Assembly (NCBI GenBank): GCA_037444405.1
Contig: JBBIML010000016.1
Location: 15,875-79,874, forward strand
Length of the DNA: 64,000 bases
Source: Armatimonadota bacterium
Lineage (GTDB): Bacteria > Armatimonadota > Fimbriimonadia > Fimbriimonadales > GBS-DC
Direction of reading: 5' to 3'
Of this stretch, positions 2,503 through 42,147 are shown one piece after another. The position numbers and the translations under genes were made by a program. Position 1 is the first letter of the stretch. Every line of letters begins with the position of its first letter. Under the pieces are notes generated by a model, which had not been told where the DNA came from, did no database searches, and worked only from the letters and a program-made list of their open reading frames with translations.

Positions 2503-3909
2503 CTATTCGACGCCTGCGCCGATTTTCCTGCTTTCGGATGGCTCAGCGGCGCACACGCAGTTGCGCCCGCTGGCTTTGGCGCGATAGAGCGCCTGGTCAG
2601 CAGCCTCGATCAGCTCCTGCGGACTTGCCATCCCCGGCTGATAGCTGGCGACGCCGAAGCTGGCGGTGACGGGTCCCTGTGGAGCGCAGAGGCACGACTC
2701 CGACCCCAGCGCCTCCCATGCGCCTGCGGCGATGGCTTCACGCAACCGTTCCGCAACAGTGAGGGCGCTGGTCAAATCGGTGCTGGGCAGCACCACAGCA
2801 AACTCCTCACCGCCATAACGCGCCACAAAGTCGCTCTGGCGCACCGTCTGAACAAGTATCCGGGCAACCTGCTTCAGCACCTCGTCGCCCACAAGATGAC
2901 CGTAGGTGTCGTTCAGCCGCTTGAAATGGTCGACATCCAGCAGAATGAGCGAGAGTGGGCGGTTGTGGCGCTGCGCCTCGGCGAGCTGCTGACGCAAAAA
3001 ATCCTGAAAGGCGCGATGGTTGGGAATGCCCGTCAGCCCATCCGCAAGCGCCATCCGCTGCAGATGGCGCTCGTACTCCACCCGATCCGACGCATCGACC
3101 ACCGCCACGATGCCGCCGACCACCTCGCCATTCGGATTGCTCAGCGGGAACGCACTGCGCATCACCGAGCGAATCTGACCTGACGCGGTGGGGATCTCCA
3201 CAGGCTCCTTATCGCGCACAGTCTCGCCTGCTAACACGCCTTCGACGAGCGAACGCATATCGGCGGTGGCTCCCTCACGGAACACCGTTTCATAGACGGG
3301 ACGGAACAGCACCTGCTGCTTGGGATAGCCGAACAGCTGCTCCGCTGCCTGGTTCCACTCGTGGAGCGTGCCTTCGGCGTCGAAGGTGAAGCAGGCGATG
3401 GGCAGGTTCTCGAACAGCTCGGTGAAGCGGCGATTCGCATGGATGAGCAGTCGCTGAGAATGCTCCAGCTCCTCGGCGCGTGCTTTCAACTCCTCGTTGA
3501 GCGATTGCAGATGCTGGCTCTGCGTACGCAGCCGCTCCTCCATCTCCAGAATGCGGCGGGCGACGCTGAGGCGGGCGCGTAGCTCGGCGCTGTTGACAGG
3601 CTTGTAGAGAAAGTCATCCGCTCCCGCTTCTAAAGCCATGAGCTTGGTCGTCTCATCGCCACTGCCTGTGAGCATGATCAGGTACACATAACCCTCACAG
3701 GCATGGGCGCGCAGCCGCCGACAGAGTTCGATGCCGTCCATGTGGGGCATCAGCCAGTCGGTCAGCACCAGTGGCACTGGCTCCTGCTGGAACAGCTGCC
3801 ACGCCTGCTCACCATCATGAGCCATGCGCACCTCGTAGCCCTCCCGTCGCAGGAGGCGCTCCAGTCCGCGCGCAACCACCCGATCATCGTCCACCACCAG
3901 CGCTCGCAT
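2503..3909 (-). CDS. Response regulator / PAS / GGDEF diguanylate cyclase
   Basis: Receiver domain (VVDDD...DWLMP...KP), PAS (WNQAAEQLFGY), intact ARYGGEEF with RxxD I-site (RQSD). Confidence 0.92.
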   Translation of the reverse strand: MRALVVDDDRVVARGLERLLRREGYEVRMAHDGEQAWQLFQQEPVPLVLTDWLMPHMDGIELCRRLRAHACEGYVYLIMLTGSGDETTKLMALEAGADDFLYKPVNSAELRARLSVARRILEMEERLRTQSQHLQSLNEELKARAEELEHSQRLLIHANRRFTELFENLPIACFTFDAEGTLHEWNQAAEQLFGYPKQQVLFRPVYETVFREGATADMRSLVEGVLAGETVRDKEPVEIPTASGQIRSVMRSAFPLSNPNGEVVGGIVAVVDASDRVEYERHLQRMALADGLTGIPNHRAFQDFLRQQLAEAQRHNRPLSLILLDVDHFKRLNDTYGHLVGDEVLKQVARILVQTVRQSDFVARYGGEEFAVVLPSTDLTSALTVAERLREAIAAGAWEALGSESCLCAPQGPVTASFGVASYQPGMASPQELIEAADQALYRAKASGRNCVCAAEPSESRKIGAGVE

Positions 3910-4058
3910 CGTTCGTTCCTCTTGTGGGGTTATTCCATGCGCGCTGCCCAATCTCTCATGAAAATCGGCGTGTCGCCGCCCCGCAAAAGGATGTCGTTCC
4001 CGCGTTAGCATTTTCAGGCGCGGGCATGCCATCCTCTCCATCGAGGAGGAAAATAGCG

Positions 4059-4892
4059 ATGCGCTGGACAGTTGCGATGGGTTTGATGGGTCTGATGGCG
4101 TTGCTGTGCGCTCAACAGAGCTATCAGGCGCAGCCGACGGACGATGTATGGTACTACGATAACGCTTTCAATCCGGGCTTCACAGCGATTTTGCGCTGCT
4201 GGGGCGACGGCACGAACGCAGTCGACCCCACAGGCGACCGACCCCGACTGAACTTCTCTTACTCGCTGGCGAAATGGAGTTTGTCGCCCTTCCAGTCCGG
4301 GGTACGCTATCAGCTGTTAGAAGCCCGAATCGTCGTGACCCAGACCCAGCCGCCTGGCTACACGCGCGAGGAGGGCGAGCAATATCCGCTGGAGGCGCGC
4401 GATCTGAGCCACACAAACTGGAACGAAGCCACATGGGACTATAATGCGCCCGATAACCCCTATCCCGGCACCCAGATTTTCGGCACAGGCTCCATGCTCA
4501 ACTATCGCACCGACGCGCCCTTCACCATCCCCATCGATCTGCTCGCCGAAGGGAGCGATTTTGAAGCCTACTTCCATCAGGCGGTGAACACAACGGGCGA
4601 GCTGGGGATTGCGTTTGTGTCGACGATGAATCCAGCAGAGCAGGGCGGCACGCGCTTCTATCGCTTCTATTCGCGCAACGATGCGGGCGGGCGCGGTCCA
4701 ATCCTTCAGCTGGTCTATCGCGTGGCGGGCGATGTGGACGGCAACGGCTGCACCGACGATGCCGACCTGCTGAGCGTGCTGTTCGCCTTCGGGCAATCGG
4801 GGAGCAACCTGCCGCAGGATTTGAACGGCGACGGTATCGTGGACGACGCCGACCTGCTGACTGTGCTGTTCAACTTCGGCAATGGGTGCTAA
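4059..4892 (+). CDS. Secreted protein with C-terminal dockerin-like double EF-hand repeat
   Basis: GAGGAGG RBS, signal peptide, and GDVDGNGCTDDADLLSVLFAFG...DLNGDGIVDDADLLTVLFNFG. Confidence 0.8.
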   Translation: MRWTVAMGLMGLMALLCAQQSYQAQPTDDVWYYDNAFNPGFTAILRCWGDGTNAVDPTGDRPRLNFSYSLAKWSLSPFQSGVRYQLLEARIVVTQTQPPGYTREEGEQYPLEARDLSHTNWNEATWDYNAPDNPYPGTQIFGTGSMLNYRTDAPFTIPIDLLAEGSDFEAYFHQAVNTTGELGIAFVSTMNPAEQGGTRFYRFYSRNDAGGRGPILQLVYRVAGDVDGNGCTDDADLLSVLFAFGQSGSNLPQDLNGDGIVDDADLLTVLFNFGNGC

Positions 4893-35098: not shown

Positions 35099-35413
35099 TT
35101 ACGGCAAGCGGATTGCGGACTGGTTCTCGCGTGTGGTCTCCAGCGTGCGCACGCGCTCCTGCAGGTTCTCCAGATTGTCCTGCAGGCTCAGGTGATGCTC
35201 CATCGTGGTGCGGCGCAGTGCCTCCATCTCGTTGCGCAGGGCTTGCAACTGTTGCAGGAGCGTTTCGTTATCGGCGCCGAGCCGCTTCATCTGGCGCCGA
35301 TGCTCCAGTATTATTTCCACCAACCCGATGCACCACATGGGCACAAAAATCACGCTGGCGGTGCCCAGCAGTCCCAGTGCGATCCAGCGTGCCAGTTCCA
35401 CCCATTCACCCAT
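35099..35413 (-). CDS. Small single-TM coiled-coil protein
   Basis: N-terminal TM helix, then SLQDNLENLQERVRTLE. Paralog of the adjacent gene. Confidence 0.75.
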   Translation of the reverse strand: MGEWVELARWIALGLLGTASVIFVPMWCIGLVEIILEHRRQMKRLGADNETLLQQLQALRNEMEALRRTTMEHHLSLQDNLENLQERVRTLETTRENQSAIRLP

Positions 35414-35425
35414 TGGGTTCCCCCT

Positions 35426-35731
35426 TCAGAAAGTGCGCAGCTGGGCGCGCTCGCTCAGTTGCTGTTCCAGCGTGCGCACGCGCTCCTGCAGGTTCTCCAG
35501 ATTGTCCTGCAGGCTCATGTCGTACTCGGTGGAGGTACGGCGCAGTTCGGCAAGCTCGCGGCGCAGCGCTTCGATCTGCGCGATCAGCTCCTGGTTCGCC
35601 ACCGCGCGTCGCTCCAGCTCCATCCGCGCCATCTCCTTGCGATGCTTCAGCACCATCGCTGTCACCGGGATAATGACAGCAGGTCCGAAGATAAACAGCA
35701 CAGCGACCAGTCCTGTCAGTTCGCCAATCAT
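35426..35731 (-). CDS. Small single-TM coiled-coil protein
   Basis: MIGELTGLVAVLFIFG..., with the same SLQDNLENLQERVRTLE segment. ATG overlaps the upstream stop. Confidence 0.78.
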   Translation of the reverse strand: MIGELTGLVAVLFIFGPAVIIPVTAMVLKHRKEMARMELERRAVANQELIAQIEALRRELAELRRTSTEYDMSLQDNLENLQERVRTLEQQLSERAQLRTF

Positions 35732-36495
35732 TCTTCGTCCCCCATATAGTATACCTCGCTTTTGTGTGCGCGAGGGTTCACGATTTCGCCGTTGAGTTCC
35801 CAGTCGGTTTCCCAGCGGGACAGGCGCAGGATGCCCACGCCGCGCGCGAAGGGTCTCGCCTGCGCAATCCACACGCGCCCGACGCGCTCTGGCGTCTTGA
35901 GCGGCGTGTGTGAGTGCCCACCGATGATCAGATCCAGCAGCGGGCACGCCTCCGCCAGTTTGCGGTCCTGCCCAACGCCGATGTGGGTGAGCGCAACGAG
36001 CAGGTCGACATCGGGGCGCAGGCGGCTCGCCCACTCCTGCGCGACGCTCAGTGGCGGGTCGAACAGGTACGCGCTGACGGACGCACTGCGCATGTGGGGC
36101 GTAATCATCGGCACGGTCAAGCCGATGATGCCGATGCGCACGCCTGCATGCTCACCCTGCCAGATGGGTTGCACAGGCAGTGGTGTGTCGGGCTGTTTCG
36201 AGCGCAGATTGGCGCACAGCAGCGGGCAGGGCGCGCCCCGCACCTTCGCCAGAAAGCCCGACGGCAAAAAGTGAAACTCACGGTTGCCAATCGTCGCAGC
36301 GTGATAGCCTGCCTGACGCATAAACTCCCACGCCGATTCGGGCTTGAGCGGGATGGCGAGGTTGCCCGCGCGGATGCAGTCGCCCGCGTCGAGCAGCAGC
36401 GCGTTCAGTTGCTCGCGCAGCTGGCGCAGCGCGTCGGCGAACGGCTGGCTCCAGCGACCATGCACATCGTTGGTGTGCAGGATAGTGAGCGTCAT
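35728..36495 (-). CDS. Calcineurin-like metallophosphoesterase (5'-nucleotidase N-terminal type)
   Basis: LHTNDVHG, DAGD, GNRE, THIG and GGHSH. Confidence 0.88.
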   Translation of the reverse strand: MTLTILHTNDVHGRWSQPFADALRQLREQLNALLLDAGDCIRAGNLAIPLKPESAWEFMRQAGYHAATIGNREFHFLPSGFLAKVRGAPCPLLCANLRSKQPDTPLPVQPIWQGEHAGVRIGIIGLTVPMITPHMRSASVSAYLFDPPLSVAQEWASRLRPDVDLLVALTHIGVGQDRKLAEACPLLDLIIGGHSHTPLKTPERVGRVWIAQARPFARGVGILRLSRWETDWELNGEIVNPRAHKSEVYYMGDEE

Positions 36496-37283
36496 CGGCA
36501 GGCTCGCATCCATTCGGCGATCAGCGGGCGCGGGTCGTTCGCGCGCATCAGCGTCTCGCCGACCAGAATCGCCTTCACGCCCGCCTGCTGGAGCGCACGC
36601 ACCTGCTCGGCGGTCTCGATGCCGCTCTCGCTCACCAGCAGGCAATCGGCGGGCACGCGCGGCAGCAGGTCGAAGGTGGTCTGCAGGCTGGTCTCGAAGG
36701 TGTGCAGGTCGCGGTTGTTGACGCCGATGAGCGTGGCGCCGCTGGCGAGGGCGCGCTCCAGCTCGCTGGCGGTATGCACCTCCACAAGCGCGTCCAGCCC
36801 CAGCGATTCGGCAAGCTCGCGCCATTCGCGCAGGGCGGAATCGCTCTCGATGGCAGCCACAATCAGCAGGATGGCGTCGGCGCCCATCACGCGGCTCTCA
36901 TAAATCTGGTAGGGGTCAACGATGAAGTCCTTGCGCAACAGGGGCAGTGGCACCTGCGGACGGATAAGGTTCAGGAACTCCAGTCGCCCACCGAAGAACG
37001 GCTCGTCGGTTAGCACGCTGAGCGCGTCCGCGCCCGCCTCGTGGTAGCGGCGGGCAATCGCGAGCGGGTCGAACTGCGAGCGAATCACGCCTTTGCTGGG
37101 CGAGGCGCGTTTCAGTTCAGCAATCAGCGCGATGGGGTTCGGCGTACGGCGCAGCGCGTTCAGGAACCCGCGCGTGGGCGGCAGGTCGCGCAGCCGCGCC
37201 CGCAGCTCCCGCTCGGGCAGCCGCGCCTGGCAAGCCGCCACCTCCGCCCGCTTCGATTCCAGAATGCGCGTCAGCACCGTCAT
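36492..37283 (-). CDS. trpC: Indole-3-glycerol phosphate synthase
   Basis: IAELKRASPSKG, SVLTD, LRKDF, GVNNRDL and VSESGI. Confidence 0.97.
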   Translation of the reverse strand: MTVLTRILESKRAEVAACQARLPERELRARLRDLPPTRGFLNALRRTPNPIALIAELKRASPSKGVIRSQFDPLAIARRYHEAGADALSVLTDEPFFGGRLEFLNLIRPQVPLPLLRKDFIVDPYQIYESRVMGADAILLIVAAIESDSALREWRELAESLGLDALVEVHTASELERALASGATLIGVNNRDLHTFETSLQTTFDLLPRVPADCLLVSESGIETAEQVRALQQAGVKAILVGETLMRANDPRPLIAEWMRACR

Positions 37284-37406
37284 CGACTGGCGAAAGCATA
37301 CCCGAATCGCACACGAAATAGAGCTGTGAGACGCGCTACCCGCGAAATTAACGACCGAATCGGCGCAAAAACCCCAAAAAGTGGGTCAGGTAGACAAATG
37401 TACCAC

Positions 37407-37435
37407 TTGACAAATGGCTTCGAGCGTGCTATATT
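37407..37435 (+). promoter_or_regulatory. Near-consensus sigma-70 promoter
   Basis: TTGACA-17 bp-TATATT with an extended TG. The direct repeat GACAAATG occurs at 37393 and 37409. Confidence 0.7.
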
Positions 37436-37517
37436 AATTAATATCGGCGGCTTGAAGCCTCCTATCAGGCATGGCTTATGGGCTGCTGAGGTGATTCTGT
37501 CAAACGGAGGGTCAACG

Positions 37518-38849
37518 ATGAAGCGATACAATCGCTGGATTGCTGGAGCGAGCGCCTTTACAATGGTGGCGCTGATAGGCATTTCGTTTGCGCAGCCCGT
37601 CACGGCTCAACCAGCCGAACCTTTCACCCCGTCGATTGTTGTTCAAGAACAAGGTCCCGTTGACCTCAACCTGAGCTGGGAGCTGGTTCCGCGTTCTCCC
37701 ATTAAGTTCACCCCGTTTGACATGGTGGACCCGAATACGGGGAAACCTGTTAGCCCCGATGATTGGATCGAAGTGAACGGTGTCAGAGTCAAGGCAGGCG
37801 AGTTTTATCGCCGTTTGAACGAGATGGAGCGCTGGCTCAACGAGCGTGGTTATTCTCTCCGCACGGACACCTACTTTGAGTACTTCTCTCCAGAGCTGGA
37901 AGCCCAGATCGCCGATTCGGAGCGTCGCCTGCGCGAGTTTGAGGCGCAGATGCCGATAGAAGGCGAGCCCGGGGAAGATCAGTTCTATCCCGCCGCCTGC
38001 GTAGGCGATAGTCGAAGTTTCGACACGGGCTGGTATGGAAACAGCCTGTGGGGGCTTCGCCTGTATGGTTCCGGGAGTTTTCAAGCCTGCTTCCCTGGCT
38101 CAAACGGAACCATTGCTTCGGCAAATGTGAATGGCAATGCTACCTTGCAGGGACGCCTTGCCAACTTCACAGCAAATGTTGCCGAAGCAACTGGAAGTGC
38201 CTCAGCCTCTATTACCAGCAATAGCTGTTTTAACTACAGCTACAATGTGAGCGTCCGTGCCTTTGGAAATCAGGTGTGGGGCCCAAGCGGCTCTGGTAGT
38301 TACTGCGCTCGCTACCAGAACAGCTGGAACTGGCAGATTGCCAGCTTTAACTGGCGTAGTCCAACTATTCGGCTGGGATGCATCTCAATACTCGGTATCC
38401 CCGTCTGTCTGGATGGGCAGGTTGGCGTTAGCGGCTCTGCCTATCTATCAGCAGGGGTCGATATTGGGGTGTTCGCTCAAATCGCTTCTGTGCGCCCCTA
38501 TGGCTCCGCCAGTGGCTGGGCAGCGGCATGGATTGGTGTGAACGCTGGCATAGCCCGTGCAGAAGCGGGTGTGCGCGGCACACTCAACTTCTTCAACGGC
38601 GGCATTGAAGGGCGTGCCATTGGCAATCTCAGTATCGACTCTAACTGCGTGCGCTATAACTTCAATGCCCAGCTTAACGCCTCTATCTCTGCTCTAAGCG
38701 GTCATGTGGAAGCCTTCGCACGCGGCTGCATCTGGTTCTTCGGCTGGCGATGCGTGGAAGGCTCCATTCGCCTCTTTTCCTGGAGCGGTCTGAGCTGGAA
38801 CGGAACCATAGGGCAGTTCTCGCGAACCTACACGATCAACTGCTGGTGA
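37518..38849 (+). CDS. Secreted protein with charged N-terminal region and Cys/Gly/Ser-rich amphipathic beta-strand C-terminal domain
   Basis: GGAGG RBS, signal peptide (SFA-Q), 10 Cys in the C-terminal two thirds, alternating beta patterns. Confidence 0.8.
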   Translation: MKRYNRWIAGASAFTMVALIGISFAQPVTAQPAEPFTPSIVVQEQGPVDLNLSWELVPRSPIKFTPFDMVDPNTGKPVSPDDWIEVNGVRVKAGEFYRRLNEMERWLNERGYSLRTDTYFEYFSPELEAQIADSERRLREFEAQMPIEGEPGEDQFYPAACVGDSRSFDTGWYGNSLWGLRLYGSGSFQACFPGSNGTIASANVNGNATLQGRLANFTANVAEATGSASASITSNSCFNYSYNVSVRAFGNQVWGPSGSGSYCARYQNSWNWQIASFNWRSPTIRLGCISILGIPVCLDGQVGVSGSAYLSAGVDIGVFAQIASVRPYGSASGWAAAWIGVNAGIARAEAGVRGTLNFFNGGIEGRAIGNLSIDSNCVRYNFNAQLNASISALSGHVEAFARGCIWFFGWRCVEGSIRLFSWSGLSWNGTIGQFSRTYTINCW

Positions 38850-38860
38850 ACCTGACTATA

Positions 38861-38890
38861 ACCCTCCCACGGGTTTTCCCGTGGGAGGGT
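38861..38890. promoter_or_regulatory. Strong intercistronic hairpin
   Basis: accctcccacggg-tttt-cccgtgggagggt, a perfect 13-bp stem just before the AAGGAGG RBS of the next gene. Confidence 0.7.
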
Positions 38891-38904
38891 CTAAGGAGGT
38901 TTCC

Positions 38905-40764
38905 ATGATTCATCTGATAGCAATTGCCATCATAGCTATTCTTTCTTCTTATAGTTCCTTCTCGCAGGTAAGAAATCTCGAACTCCACTACAAAGTGGAC
39001 GGAGAGAGCCGCTCTCACTTCTGGATGCAAGGGCTTCAGAATCAACCACCCACCAAACAGCCTGAGTGGAGCGCTATTAATCGTTTTTCTTATGATATTA
39101 TATTAACCTTGCTAAGGAAGAATCTGTGGCGAATAGATTGGAAAAACTGGCAGGTTAATGGCTTCATTCCCGAATCGTTCAAGCCACTGCTGGATTATGT
39201 TCAAAAAATCACTCCTGTATATGTGCATTGCTATTCTGGTGGACACCTGCAATTTGCATGTCCACGCATCAAGGAGGTATGGCAGCGCCAAGCCGTTGGT
39301 GGTATACTCTGGTACTTTCAGTTTGTACGCCCATCTCGCGATGCCTCAGAATGGCGCGTGAAGGAGGCACATCCAAGTGGAATGATTATTTGCCGATATC
39401 GACTGGTACGCCAAACCAAAACGGTTCGCATCTACCGCAAGAGTGTTGAGGAGGTTTTGATCCCAGCTGCCGAGAAGCAAATGGGCAAGCAACATCGAAT
39501 AGAGGGTTACTTAACTTACGAAATCAATCGCGAGGGTGTCATTATTCGGGTTAATGGAGCTCTCCGGGAGCGTGTAAATATGAATGGTATCCCAACTACG
39601 GATACAAAACAGACGATTCGAATCACTCTTCAGAAGCGTCGCCAGCTTGCTTCTTCGCGTTTATTAGTTTTGCAAAGTCAGGCGGAGCAGATTTTTCAGT
39701 CTCATTCCCGTTACTCACTATATGCCCCACCAACTGAAGAGGAACAAAGTCGCCTTCGGGCTCAGGGCATTCTTCAGGGCACTCAACCGGAGCAACTCTT
39801 GAAAGAGGCGGAGATATTCCGCCGAAACATGCCCAGCGACCCCCAGAAGCGTCAGGATTTGTTGACGGAACTGTCGCTGCGGCTGGAATCGGCTCTTATC
39901 CTGTATCCTGATAAAATGTTCCCAGCTATAAAAAAATGGCTGGAACAATCTGAAGCAGCTGATGAGTTTTACTGGACTCTCCTACGGCTTCTGACCGATT
40001 CATCCTCAGCTGAAGCGCAAGCCATTCTGCTGGAGCAATTAGACGCTTCCTCAGAAGAGAAGCGCTTAGCCGCAGCGCGTCAAATCGCCTGGTTGCGCCG
40101 ACCGTCACCCGACACTTTCCAAAAGCTCTGGCAGAGAGCGCAGAGCGCCGATGCCGGGCTACGCCCAACGCTGGAAATCAGCCTCAGTATCCTTGCTAAA
40201 TCTCTTCCTGATAGTGCGAAAAATCTGGTTGATCAGTTTGCTACCTGGGCGGCAAACAACCTGCAAAGCGCGATCGACGAAAATAATGAGCCGAACCAGA
40301 TTCACTGGCTGCGTGTGGCGATTAACCTGGCACATCCTATCTTCTGGGATACTGTAGCGAAGCTGGTGAAAAGTGGAGCGGAACAAGTGCGCCTGCTGGC
40401 TGTGGAAGCGTTAAGCAAGCAAGATATCAAGCGTGCGTTCCCTGTTCTGCGATCGAGTTTCGAAATGGAGCCGTCTCTATCGGTACGCGAAGCAATTGTT
40501 TCCTATGCTGCGCAGCACGGCTGGGAACTACCCGAGGTGCGCGTTTTCATAGAGTGGGTTGCATTTAACGATCCCGAATTGCGTATACGCAAGGCATGTG
40601 TACAGGGCCTGCTGGAGCTGGTGCCGAAAAATCAACAGGCTATCGATCTGCTGGCTCAGATTGCGGAGCGGAATTCGATGCCGGCTATTCGGCGCGAAGC
40701 GATGATCGCGCTGGCGGCTCTACATGCCAGCGGTATCAAAGTGCCCGATGTCAAGGGACGCTAA
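38905..40764 (+). CDS. Secreted protein: N-terminal beta domain + HEAT-like helical solenoid (vitellogenin/MTP N-terminal-like)
   Basis: AAGGAGG RBS, signal peptide, a beta-rich first ~260 aa, then HEAT-type repeats (VRLLAVEAL, VREA, IRKACV, IRREAMIAL). Lower GC than the flanks. Confidence 0.75.
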   Translation: MIHLIAIAIIAILSSYSSFSQVRNLELHYKVDGESRSHFWMQGLQNQPPTKQPEWSAINRFSYDIILTLLRKNLWRIDWKNWQVNGFIPESFKPLLDYVQKITPVYVHCYSGGHLQFACPRIKEVWQRQAVGGILWYFQFVRPSRDASEWRVKEAHPSGMIICRYRLVRQTKTVRIYRKSVEEVLIPAAEKQMGKQHRIEGYLTYEINREGVIIRVNGALRERVNMNGIPTTDTKQTIRITLQKRRQLASSRLLVLQSQAEQIFQSHSRYSLYAPPTEEEQSRLRAQGILQGTQPEQLLKEAEIFRRNMPSDPQKRQDLLTELSLRLESALILYPDKMFPAIKKWLEQSEAADEFYWTLLRLLTDSSSAEAQAILLEQLDASSEEKRLAAARQIAWLRRPSPDTFQKLWQRAQSADAGLRPTLEISLSILAKSLPDSAKNLVDQFATWAANNLQSAIDENNEPNQIHWLRVAINLAHPIFWDTVAKLVKSGAEQVRLLAVEALSKQDIKRAFPVLRSSFEMEPSLSVREAIVSYAAQHGWELPEVRVFIEWVAFNDPELRIRKACVQGLLELVPKNQQAIDLLAQIAERNSMPAIRREAMIALAALHASGIKVPDVKGR

Positions 40765-40773
40765 GGCGCACCA

Positions 40774-42147
40774 TTAGAACAAGATGGCCTTCGCTACCAA
40801 AAAATAGATGAGCAGCCCTGCGGCGTCTATTAAGGTGGTGATGGCGGGCGCGGACATCACCGCCGGGTCGATATTGAGCCGTTTGGCGAGCAGGGGCAAC
40901 ATCGCGCCCACCAGCGTCGCCAGCAGAATAATCAGCATCTGCGCGATGCCGACGGTGAGCGCCAGCCCAAATGCGATAGCGCGATGGCGGGGGTCGATCC
41001 ATGTCCAGAAGAAGGCGTTGGCGATGCCGATCAGTCCGATAATGGCTCCAAGCAGCAGCCCTGTCAGCGCCTCGCGCCCCATCACGCGCAGAATCTGTCC
41101 CCAGCGCACCTCACCCAAGGCGATCGCGCGGGTGACGGTGGTGGTGGTCTGGGCGCCCGCGTTGCCGCCCGTACCAATCAGCAGCGGCACAAACCACGCC
41201 AGTGCCGTCACCGCGCTCAACTCCTCATCATAGTGGCGCAATACCGTGCCCGTGAGCCGCTCGGCAATAAACAGCAGAATGAGCCAGCGCACCCGCTTGC
41301 GCACCAGATCCCACGGCGACTGGCTCAGATACGGCTCTTCGGTCGCCTCCACCGCGCCCAGCTTCAGCACATCCTCCGTGCTTTCACTCACCAGAATATC
41401 GACCACATCGTCGATGGTTACAATCCCCAGCATGCGCCCCAGCTCGTCCACCACTGGCACGGCTAACAGGTCATACTTGGAGAGCAGGTTCGCGACCTCT
41501 TCCTGGTCGGTGGCGGGCTGAACCACCACCAGGTCGGTCTCCATAATCTGCTCGATGCGCTTGCTGGGGTCTGCCAGCACCAGCTCGCGCAGGGAACAGA
41601 CGCCCACCAGCCGCTGGCGCGTGTCCACCGCATAAAGATAGTAGATGGTCTCGATGTCGGGTCCGATCTGGCGCAGGTGGTCGAGGGCTTGTTCGACCGT
41701 CCATTCGGGTCGCACGCGCACATACTGGCGCACCATCAGGCGTCCAGCGGTGTTGGGGGGATATTCGAGCAGTTCGCGCACATCGCGGGCTTCAGGCGGC
41801 GCCATCTGCTGGAGCAGGGCTTCGGCTTTTGGCTCCTCCAGCTCCTCAAGAATCTGAGCAGCGTCGTCGGCGGGCAGAGCCTGCAGCAAGCGGGCGGCTT
41901 TGTCCAGCGGGATATGCTCGAAAATCTCTTCCACCAGCACGGGTTCGAGGTAGTCCAGCGCTTCGGCTGCCTGTTCTTCGGGCATCTGGACAAGCACCAG
42001 CGCCTGCTGGGCGGGGTCATCCAGCAGGGTGAGCGCTTCGGCGATATCCTGTGGCGGGATGTCCTGCACAATCGCAGGGATCAGCCCGTCGGTCGCCTGC
42101 AGTTCCTCGCGCAATCGCTCCGCCAGTGCCTCCACACGCTCCGGCAT
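40774..42147 (-). CDS. mgtE: Magnesium transporter MgtE
   Basis: YPPNTAGRLM, a CBS pair, GTGGNAGAQ and DPAVMSAPAITTLID. Confidence 0.96.
   Translation of the reverse strand: MPERVEALAERLREELQATDGLIPAIVQDIPPQDIAEALTLLDDPAQQALVLVQMPEEQAAEALDYLEPVLVEEIFEHIPLDKAARLLQALPADDAAQILEELEEPKAEALLQQMAPPEARDVRELLEYPPNTAGRLMVRQYVRVRPEWTVEQALDHLRQIGPDIETIYYLYAVDTRQRLVGVCSLRELVLADPSKRIEQIMETDLVVVQPATDQEEVANLLSKYDLLAVPVVDELGRMLGIVTIDDVVDILVSESTEDVLKLGAVEATEEPYLSQSPWDLVRKRVRWLILLFIAERLTGTVLRHYDEELSAVTALAWFVPLLIGTGGNAGAQTTTTVTRAIALGEVRWGQILRVMGREALTGLLLGAIIGLIGIANAFFWTWIDPRHRAIAFGLALTVGIAQMLIILLATLVGAMLPLLAKRLNIDPAVMSAPAITTLIDAAGLLIYFLVAKAILF

Follow-up and report, generated by a model that had tools for sequence, protein, structure and literature searches.

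The large lipid transfer proteins (LLTPs), namely MTP, vitellogenin/lipovitellin, apoB and apolipophorin, underlie yolk formation and lipoprotein assembly. MTP alpha (6I7S, 8EOJ) is the smallest LLTP. Its domains are given in PMC6717300 as a half beta-barrel (residues 21-297), a helical domain (298-603) and a C-terminal lipid-binding domain (604-884); the same paper describes a six-strand C-sheet followed by an A-sheet with strands twice as long. No paper on bacterial LLTP-like proteins was found by a full-text search, with subscription journals and supplements outside its reach. Here, a two-gene operon of a hot-spring-type Armatimonadota bacterium is described, which lies at 37518-40764 of the window, i.e. 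the whole stretch of 64,000 nucleotides that was analysed (assembly GCA_037444405.1, contig JBBIML010000016.1). The two genes form a real bacterial module that is conserved and LLTP-like. Its second gene (gene 2) is a genuine homologue of the LLTP N-terminal module by sequence profiles and fold, and on balance the operon as a whole probably encodes a two-subunit bacterial version of an LLTP. In this reading the gene 2 half is strongly supported and the gene 1 half is plausible. The two genes and their domains are as follows, with coordinates in the window and residue numbers in the proteins.

37518-38849, plus strand: gene 1, 443 amino acids (aa), stop codon included in the coordinates; apparently exported protein of an unnamed family.
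37518-37610, plus strand: putative signal peptide of gene 1, about residues 1-26 to 1-31 (...ISFAQ/PVTAQ), as read from the sequence.
37665-37952, plus strand: N-terminal alpha/beta domain of gene 1, residues ~50-145, the best-conserved part of the family.
37968-38846, plus strand: beta-hairpin domain of gene 1, residues 151-443, with 15 amphipathic strands and 10 Cys.
38905-40764, plus strand: gene 2, 619 aa, stop codon included in the coordinates; apparently exported homologue of the LLTP N-terminal module.
38905-38967, plus strand: putative signal peptide or N-terminal anchor of gene 2, residues 1-21, with a helix at 2-21 in the model.
38977-39645, plus strand: beta-barrel of gene 2, residues 25-247, from the AlphaFold2 (AF2) model.
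39652-40728, plus strand: helical solenoid of gene 2, residues 250-608, HEAT-like and fitting the helical domain of Vitellogenin_N.

Compared with MTP, the gene 2 protein aligned to residues 30-610 with a VIA-align Z of 16.6 over 517 residues and a Foldseek E-value of 8.9e-17. The aligned span corresponds to the half beta-barrel and the helical domain as delimited in PMC6717300. The gene 1 sheet domain with ~293 aa is of the size of the C-terminal domain at 604-884 in the same account (281 residues), and MTP was its best Foldseek match. MTP is heterodimeric, as the gene 1 and gene 2 products may be; the partner of MTP is, however, PDI, which is unrelated to gene 1. The pair also differs from MTP in that the sheets, if gene 1 supplies them, are on a separate polypeptide encoded upstream, and in that gene 1 has an extra N-terminal domain. 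Moreover, the pair is bacterial and would be exported to the periplasm or the outside, whereas MTP is resident in the endoplasmic reticulum, and lipid transfer by the pair is putative.

The other LLTPs resemble gene 2 in the same region and differ mostly in what follows it. Lipovitellin/vitellogenin (1LSH, 9ENR/9ENS) gave the best full-length superposition on gene 2 with a Z of 17.9 and 536 residues at a root-mean-square deviation (rmsd) of 6.8 A (22-598 vs 19-619). The vitellogenins are, however, single chains of 1,000-1,800 residues that form a large funnel-shaped cavity and possess additional domains, and gene 2 matches the first ~600 residues only. The beta/alpha1 part of apoB-100 (9BD1, 9BD8) gave the highest Z for gene 2 (18.9), but apoB, a single chain of giant size, is wrapped around a lipoprotein particle, and nothing in the operon suggests particle formation. 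Dibilinoxanthinin (9KUE), a complex of processed vitellogenin fragments, is similar in another way, as its natural, LLTP-derived hydrophobic cavity is composed of several polypeptides, with three fragments in each protomer, according to PMC12167979. There, however, a single precursor is cleaved into the fragments, which thus do not come from two genes, and the cargo is bilin, lutein and phosphatidylcholine. HEAT and ARM repeat proteins (HEAT_2, HEAT) superpose in large number on gene 2 residues ~290-619 with Z values of 12-18, but none of them covers the N-terminal barrel, and among the rows shown both domains occur in order only in LLTPs.

The fold of gene 2 could be judged from a very confident AF2 model with a predicted local distance difference test score (pLDDT) of 94.6 and a predicted template-modelling score (pTM) of 0.80. 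In the Foldseek search against the PDB, ranks 1-11 were LLTP entries throughout, comprising lipovitellin (8.5e-13, TMq 0.52), apoB100 (1.4e-12) and honey-bee vitellogenin (6.7e-12) besides MTP. The first non-LLTP followed at rank 12 and was a designed ARM protein (6.5e-6). VIA-align was applied both to the candidates of Foldseek and, independently of these, to 48,161 chains; its top two matches were apoB beta/alpha1 and lipovitellin. Honey-bee vitellogenin (Z 15.6, 530 residues) and MTP (Z 13.5-16.6, 508-517 residues) spanned both domains as well. Among the best 50 VIA-align rows, four LLTP entries alone spanned barrel plus helices, and the others covered ~277-619. The apoB beta-barrel taken by itself (9bd8_A) reached a Z of 18.5 over 302 residues (22-374 vs 47-393; Foldseek 1.1e-8). 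Since Foldseek and VIA-align agree and only LLTPs span both domains, gene 2 carries the conserved LLTP N-terminal module. A plain HEAT protein was thus rejected for gene 2, given the presence of the barrel and full-length matches that are confined to LLTPs.

The borders of the alignments are also those of the known module. The alignments with lipovitellin, MTP and vitellogenin begin at residues 22-24 of the gene 2 model, and the last aligned residues are 619 in lipovitellin and 610 in MTP, i.e. the LLTP domain boundary. The C- and A-sheets, which form the C-terminal lipid-binding part of LLTPs, are absent from the gene 2 chain, which ends at residue 619.

On the sequence level, Pfam HEAT_2 matched gene 2 with 9.5e-13 in three stretches that represent tandem HEAT hairpins; this accounts for the helical half only and not for the barrel. 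Pfam Vitellogenin_N (PF01347) matched residues 352-505 with 3.8e-4 and 19.6 bits (cut-off 24 bits). The relatives were clearer in this respect. A profile search with gene 2 through 1.84 billion representatives yielded a family of ~500-740 aa that matched without a break from the barrel onwards to the C-terminus, and it also drew many unrelated HEAT giants. Forty of the 49 aligned family members matched Vitellogenin_N, the best with 4.6e-21. All ten gene 2 relatives that are encoded beside a gene 1 partner matched it too, eight of them above the cut-off. When a profile of the 49 sequences was searched against PDB sequences, lipovitellin 1LSH was found with 5.9e-14 in a single stretch that begins within the barrel (130-539 vs 82-509), and the helical domain of MTP with 2.4e-11 (382-563 vs 353-546). 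W150, E154, Y165 and N474 are invariant or nearly so in the 49-member alignment. An earlier note on this DNA had taken gene 2 for a barrel plus helical domain of the Vitellogenin_N type, and in this point sequence profiles, Foldseek and VIA-align all agree with it.

Gene 1 was less readily assigned. The earlier note had seen in its C-terminal part the lipid-cavity sheets of the LLTP superfamily, and this claim is backed by the best Foldseek match, by size and by strand order, but neither by VIA-align, which remained at background level, nor by a sequence link. At E ≤ 1e-3, the PDB matches of gene 1 in Foldseek were two MTP chains only (6i7s_G with 4.2e-5 and another with 1.5e-4). The top 13 matches also include lipovitellin (1.2e-2, prob 0.92), a second MTP entry and honey-bee vitellogenin. 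In the AF2 model the early strands of the sheet domain have 12-16 residues and four later ones 24-30, a short-then-long order that resembles a C-sheet followed by an A-sheet. The strands are amphipathic, with a period-2 hydrophobicity power of 326 compared to 69 ± 25 in shuffled sequences (0 of 1000 shuffles reached it). The 10 Cys counted by the earlier note were found as well, all within residues 161-442. The likeness of gene 1 to the MTP sheets is suggestive, a resemblance and not a proof. Two further VIA-align results were at background level: dibilinoxanthinin light chain D (9KUE) was the second-best row for gene 1 in the scan made independently of Foldseek, with a Z of 8.0 (97/107 residues, rmsd 5.2 A), and residues 268-443 matched apoB 819-1031 with a Z of 6.2.

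In front of the sheets, gene 1 carries the N-terminal domain that is best conserved in the family, with the motif PFxMxDPxTGKPV ... YxxLNxxExWLNxxGYSLR in the family alignment. This domain matches by itself in distant relatives. A named relative of it was not found in a profile search of PDB sequences, and the ESM Atlas had no usable match for it; with the whole gene 1 protein, the ESM Atlas returned unnamed clusters only. In the length band that was searched, gene 1 has 44 homologues. PADLOC had no match to gene 1, and Pfam on 12 distant relatives gave only sub-threshold Big_1 matches in three long ones. These three (L048:2587-5709, L049:5078-7903 and L057:2267-5137) have 942-1041 aa, and the sub-threshold Big_1 or invasin-type Ig-like matches follow the sheet domain. 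Such long forms may be a surface-exposed or adhesive version of the module.

Both proteins open with a hydrophobic, signal-type segment, as had been noted earlier. The signal region of gene 1 is a helix at residues 5-22 in the AF2 model with a pLDDT below 50, and relatives of gene 2 have either a signal peptide or an anchor-like segment of greater length. By these signal- or anchor-type N-termini, the two products and their relatives look exported. All sequence strings quoted in the earlier note were recovered in genes 1 and 2, namely WRVKEAHPSGMIICRY, SSSAEAQAILL, LRRPSPDTF, ISLSILA and LRVAINLAHP as well as GIPVCLDGQVGVSGS, AEAGVRGTLNF and ALSGHVEAFA.

The two genes stay together in other genomes. 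Around the gene 1 matches in Armatimonadota, a full-length gene 2-like open reading frame (ORF) on the same strand lay downstream in 12 of 13 loci. In the species-genome collection with 14 loci it followed in all 13 that were not cut by a contig end; these take in one metagenome-assembled genome (MAG) of Blastocatellia and one labelled proteobacterium. The non-duplicate set had gene 1 in 25/25 loci and a neighbouring gene 2 in 23 of them, the two remaining ones being a singleton without a partner (L058) and a locus cut at a contig end. Several of the pairs overlap by a few bases. Six of 301 genomes of Acidobacteriota contained the gene 1 family, and gene 2 was adjacent in four of these six; of the other two, one had no gene 2 within ~0.9 kb and one was not covered on the relevant side. 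Two acidobacterial loci (L076 of G505 and L078 of G539) deviate in arrangement, with gene 2 convergent to gene 1 in one and read in two overlapping frames in the other, and the latter could be a frameshift or an assembly error. Conservation of the pair was thus confirmed, and gene 1 is shown to be the constant genomic partner of gene 2. In locus L058 (genome G012), the gene 1-like ORF at 3294-4535 (414 aa) lacks an obvious signal peptide and is not followed by a gene 2 partner. Perhaps this copy has decayed or been put to another use.

A third conserved gene was not found across the 25 loci, where the next ORF clusters were opposite-strand shadows. A defence system was rejected as PADLOC gave no match and no third gene is conserved. 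Fused homologues, which the earlier note had proposed to look for, did not turn up. There was no fused form among five near relatives of gene 2 (616-641 aa), and none among proteins of 1823-5000 aa. Barrel-including matches were all ≤741 aa among the best 150 of the length-free library search, which was the sole cover for 1085-1822 aa.

Concerning the distribution, the gene 1 profile matched 14 of 401 Armatimonadota genomes. PF01347 matched 41 of these 401, in 16 above its cut-off, and none of 14 control genomes. In the class of the MAG labelled proteobacterium (G402; genomes G703-G832), the gene 1 family was unusually frequent and present in 56 of 131 genomes, often with several and with up to seven matches per genome, some with in-frame stops; gene 1 is therefore not confined to one rare genome. 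Trees of gene 1 and gene 2, compared for 22 pairs after nine loci had been dropped as duplicates or truncated, showed the same major clades and pairwise distances that correlate with r 0.90. Such agreement is what one expects of neighbours; it shows that the genes are inherited together and not that their products bind. In both gene trees, the Blastocatellia copy (L074) falls within the Armatimonadota copies. Together with the low-GC island at 37250-40800 and the patchy distribution (14/401, 6/301), this suggests horizontal spread of the cassette.

From these data, a two-subunit carrier can be sketched. Both products would be exported across the inner membrane, as read from their N-termini. 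Gene 2 would supply the half-open beta-barrel and, behind it, the helical solenoid of two layers; its chain stops exactly at the point at which the lipid-binding sheets of LLTPs set in. The amphipathic hairpin domain of gene 1 with ~290 residues may act as C- and A-sheets in trans, clamped by the helical domain of gene 2 and docked in the pit of the barrel in an MTP-like way. Inside the putative heterodimer there would be a hydrophobic pocket, in which lipid or another hydrophobic cargo would be carried through the periplasm or the extracellular space. The conserved N-terminal domain of gene 1 probably serves for docking or bracing. The earlier note had arrived at a similar split eukaryote-type lipid carrier, which holds for gene 2 on the grounds of profiles and fold; for gene 1 the evidence is suggestive, with MTP in Foldseek set against background values in VIA-align.

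Several observations weigh against a two-subunit LLTP. The gene 2 protein of the window itself stays with 19.6 bits under the 24-bit Vitellogenin_N cut-off, and most Pfam matches of its family sit in the HEAT-like helical part. In the profile search of PDB sequences, synthetic HEAT proteins scored above lipovitellin. A barrel-only profile of 17 gene 2 sequences found no LLTP among PDB sequences, so that the likeness of the barrel is established by fold and not by a barrel sequence profile. Gene 1 had no sequence link to any LLTP or other family in Pfam, NCBIfam or PDB sequences, in single as well as profile searches. Its AF2 model is of moderate confidence (pLDDT 77, pTM 0.56), and its Foldseek matches have a TMq ≤0.28 and an rmsd ≥8.7 A. 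The best 50 VIA-align rows for gene 1 do not contain MTP; at the top are outer-membrane barrels and small lipid-binding folds with Z values of 6-8.4, which is the stated background level of the tool. Finally, no lipid-metabolism gene is conserved as a neighbour in the 25 loci.

The main rival explanation is that gene 1 is a membrane barrel or pore which is served by gene 2. Gene 1 would be an outer-membrane beta-barrel or a secreted pore-forming sheet protein, and gene 2, as an LLTP-like carrier or chaperone of the periplasm, would dock on it, so that hydrophobic cargo crosses the outer membrane and gene 1 forms no soluble pocket. This is close to the alternative that the earlier note itself had offered, a beta-pore toxin with a partner or chaperone, and it is considered rather unlikely. 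The best VIA-align rows of gene 1 fit it, with PapC (Z 8.4), FapF (8.2) and BAM, TamA and porins (6-7.5), and perforin/MAC hairpins are among the Foldseek matches. The long barrel alignments, however, have an rmsd of 18-22 A, good fits cover only ~100-140 residues, and all of them are at background level, while MTP is the sole Foldseek match at E ≤ 1e-3. An aromatic C-terminal residue is typical of outer-membrane beta-signals. The last residue of gene 1 is W and that of many close relatives is F, W or Y, but R, Q or L also occur there, and some relatives extend 100-500 residues, with Ig-like domains, past the sheet domain. The amphipathic strands as such would suit a membrane barrel; strands of 24-30 residues and 10 Cys are nevertheless unusual for one.

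Still less probable is a pair that has nothing to do with lipids, with gene 2 as a protein-binding scaffold and gene 1 as its protein ligand or as a surface or adhesion component. The helical half of gene 2 is indeed HEAT-like (HEAT_2), with synthetic HEAT proteins as the best sequence matches, the long gene 1 relatives bear adhesin-like Big_1 Ig-like domains, and no lipid gene is nearby. The animal module binds proteins as well, as the account of MTP binding to apoB and PDI in PMC6717300 illustrates. A scaffold would, however, not explain that gene 2 terminates exactly at the LLTP domain boundary, nor that it is paired with an amphipathic sheet domain which is as large as the MTP lipid-binding domain and has MTP at the top in Foldseek.

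A merely convergent likeness of gene 2, i.e. a generic HEAT solenoid behind an unrelated beta domain without homology to LLTPs, is highly improbable: the failure of the barrel-only profile and the sub-threshold Vitellogenin_N score of the window's protein are in line with it, but both domains are co-linear over 508-536 residues with four different LLTP families, the apoB barrel is matched on its own, the single-stretch lipovitellin match starts inside the barrel, and 8/10 partner-encoded relatives pass the Pfam cut-off.

The layout of the locus is that of an operon with its own expression signals, which are listed here.

37407-37435, plus strand: sigma-70-type promoter, TTGACA, 17-nt spacer and TATATT with a TG extension, matching at 11/12 positions.
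37506-37510, plus strand: Shine-Dalgarno sequence GGAGG of gene 1, 7 nt upstream of the ATG, read directly.
38861-38890, plus strand: intercistronic stem-loop with a 13-bp GC-rich stem and a TTTT loop, no T-run downstream.
38893-38899, plus strand: Shine-Dalgarno sequence AAGGAGG of gene 2, 5 nt upstream of the ATG at 38905, read directly.

The pair is flanked by IGPS/trpC (4.3e-91) on one side and by a convergent mgtE (MgtE, 1e-32) on the other. Its GC content is 0.47-0.57 compared to 0.62-0.68 in the flanks. Coordinates, GC profile and flanking matches are thereby in agreement with the low-GC two-gene operon between trpC and mgtE that the earlier note had described. Its near-consensus promoter was likewise confirmed and was the best of six sites in 37200-41000, where shuffled sequences gave 3.2 ± 1.7 sites. 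The Shine-Dalgarno sequences of both genes are strong. An alternative GTG start of gene 2 at 38881 falls within the intercistronic hairpin; it is the ATG at 38905 that carries AAGGAGG.

The hairpin sits between the stop codon of gene 1 and the ribosome-binding site of gene 2. It has a folding energy of -35.4 kcal/mol (z -5.8), and 0 of 200 shuffled sequences were equally stable. A sister genome (L060) has a hairpin in the same intercistronic position with an altered loop, and by visual inspection an HR15-type relative (L062) has one of different sequence. Possible roles of the hairpin are those of an attenuator within the operon or of an element for mRNA stability, by which the amounts of the two products relative to each other may be adjusted. 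In a search of sequencing runs, no RNA run containing the stretch was found; four DNA runs of one study contain it.

Upstream of the operon, two adjacent ORFs on the minus strand (35099-35413 and about 35426-35800) encode similar small proteins with one hydrophobic segment each and coiled-coil-like tails that have the string SLQDNLENLQERVRTLE in common. From their sequences, they look like a tandem duplicate of a membrane-anchored protein.

A bacterial homologue of the LLTP N-terminal module raises the question of the origin of the LLTP machinery. It is conceivable, though doubtful, that the two-gene module represents the prokaryotic ancestor of LLTPs and that the eukaryotic single chain arose when such a pair of genes fused, the sheet gene being placed after the barrel-helix gene; the bacterial pair would then be a soluble periplasmic or extracellular shuttle for lipids or other hydrophobic cargo, distinct from the known bacterial lipid-trafficking systems. 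With only two pieces of small size, and possibly thermostable, the pair would also lend itself to studies of the way in which a helical clamp and sheets build a lipid pocket. For the diderm bacteria that carry it, it hints at an undescribed route for hydrophobic cargo outside the cytoplasm.

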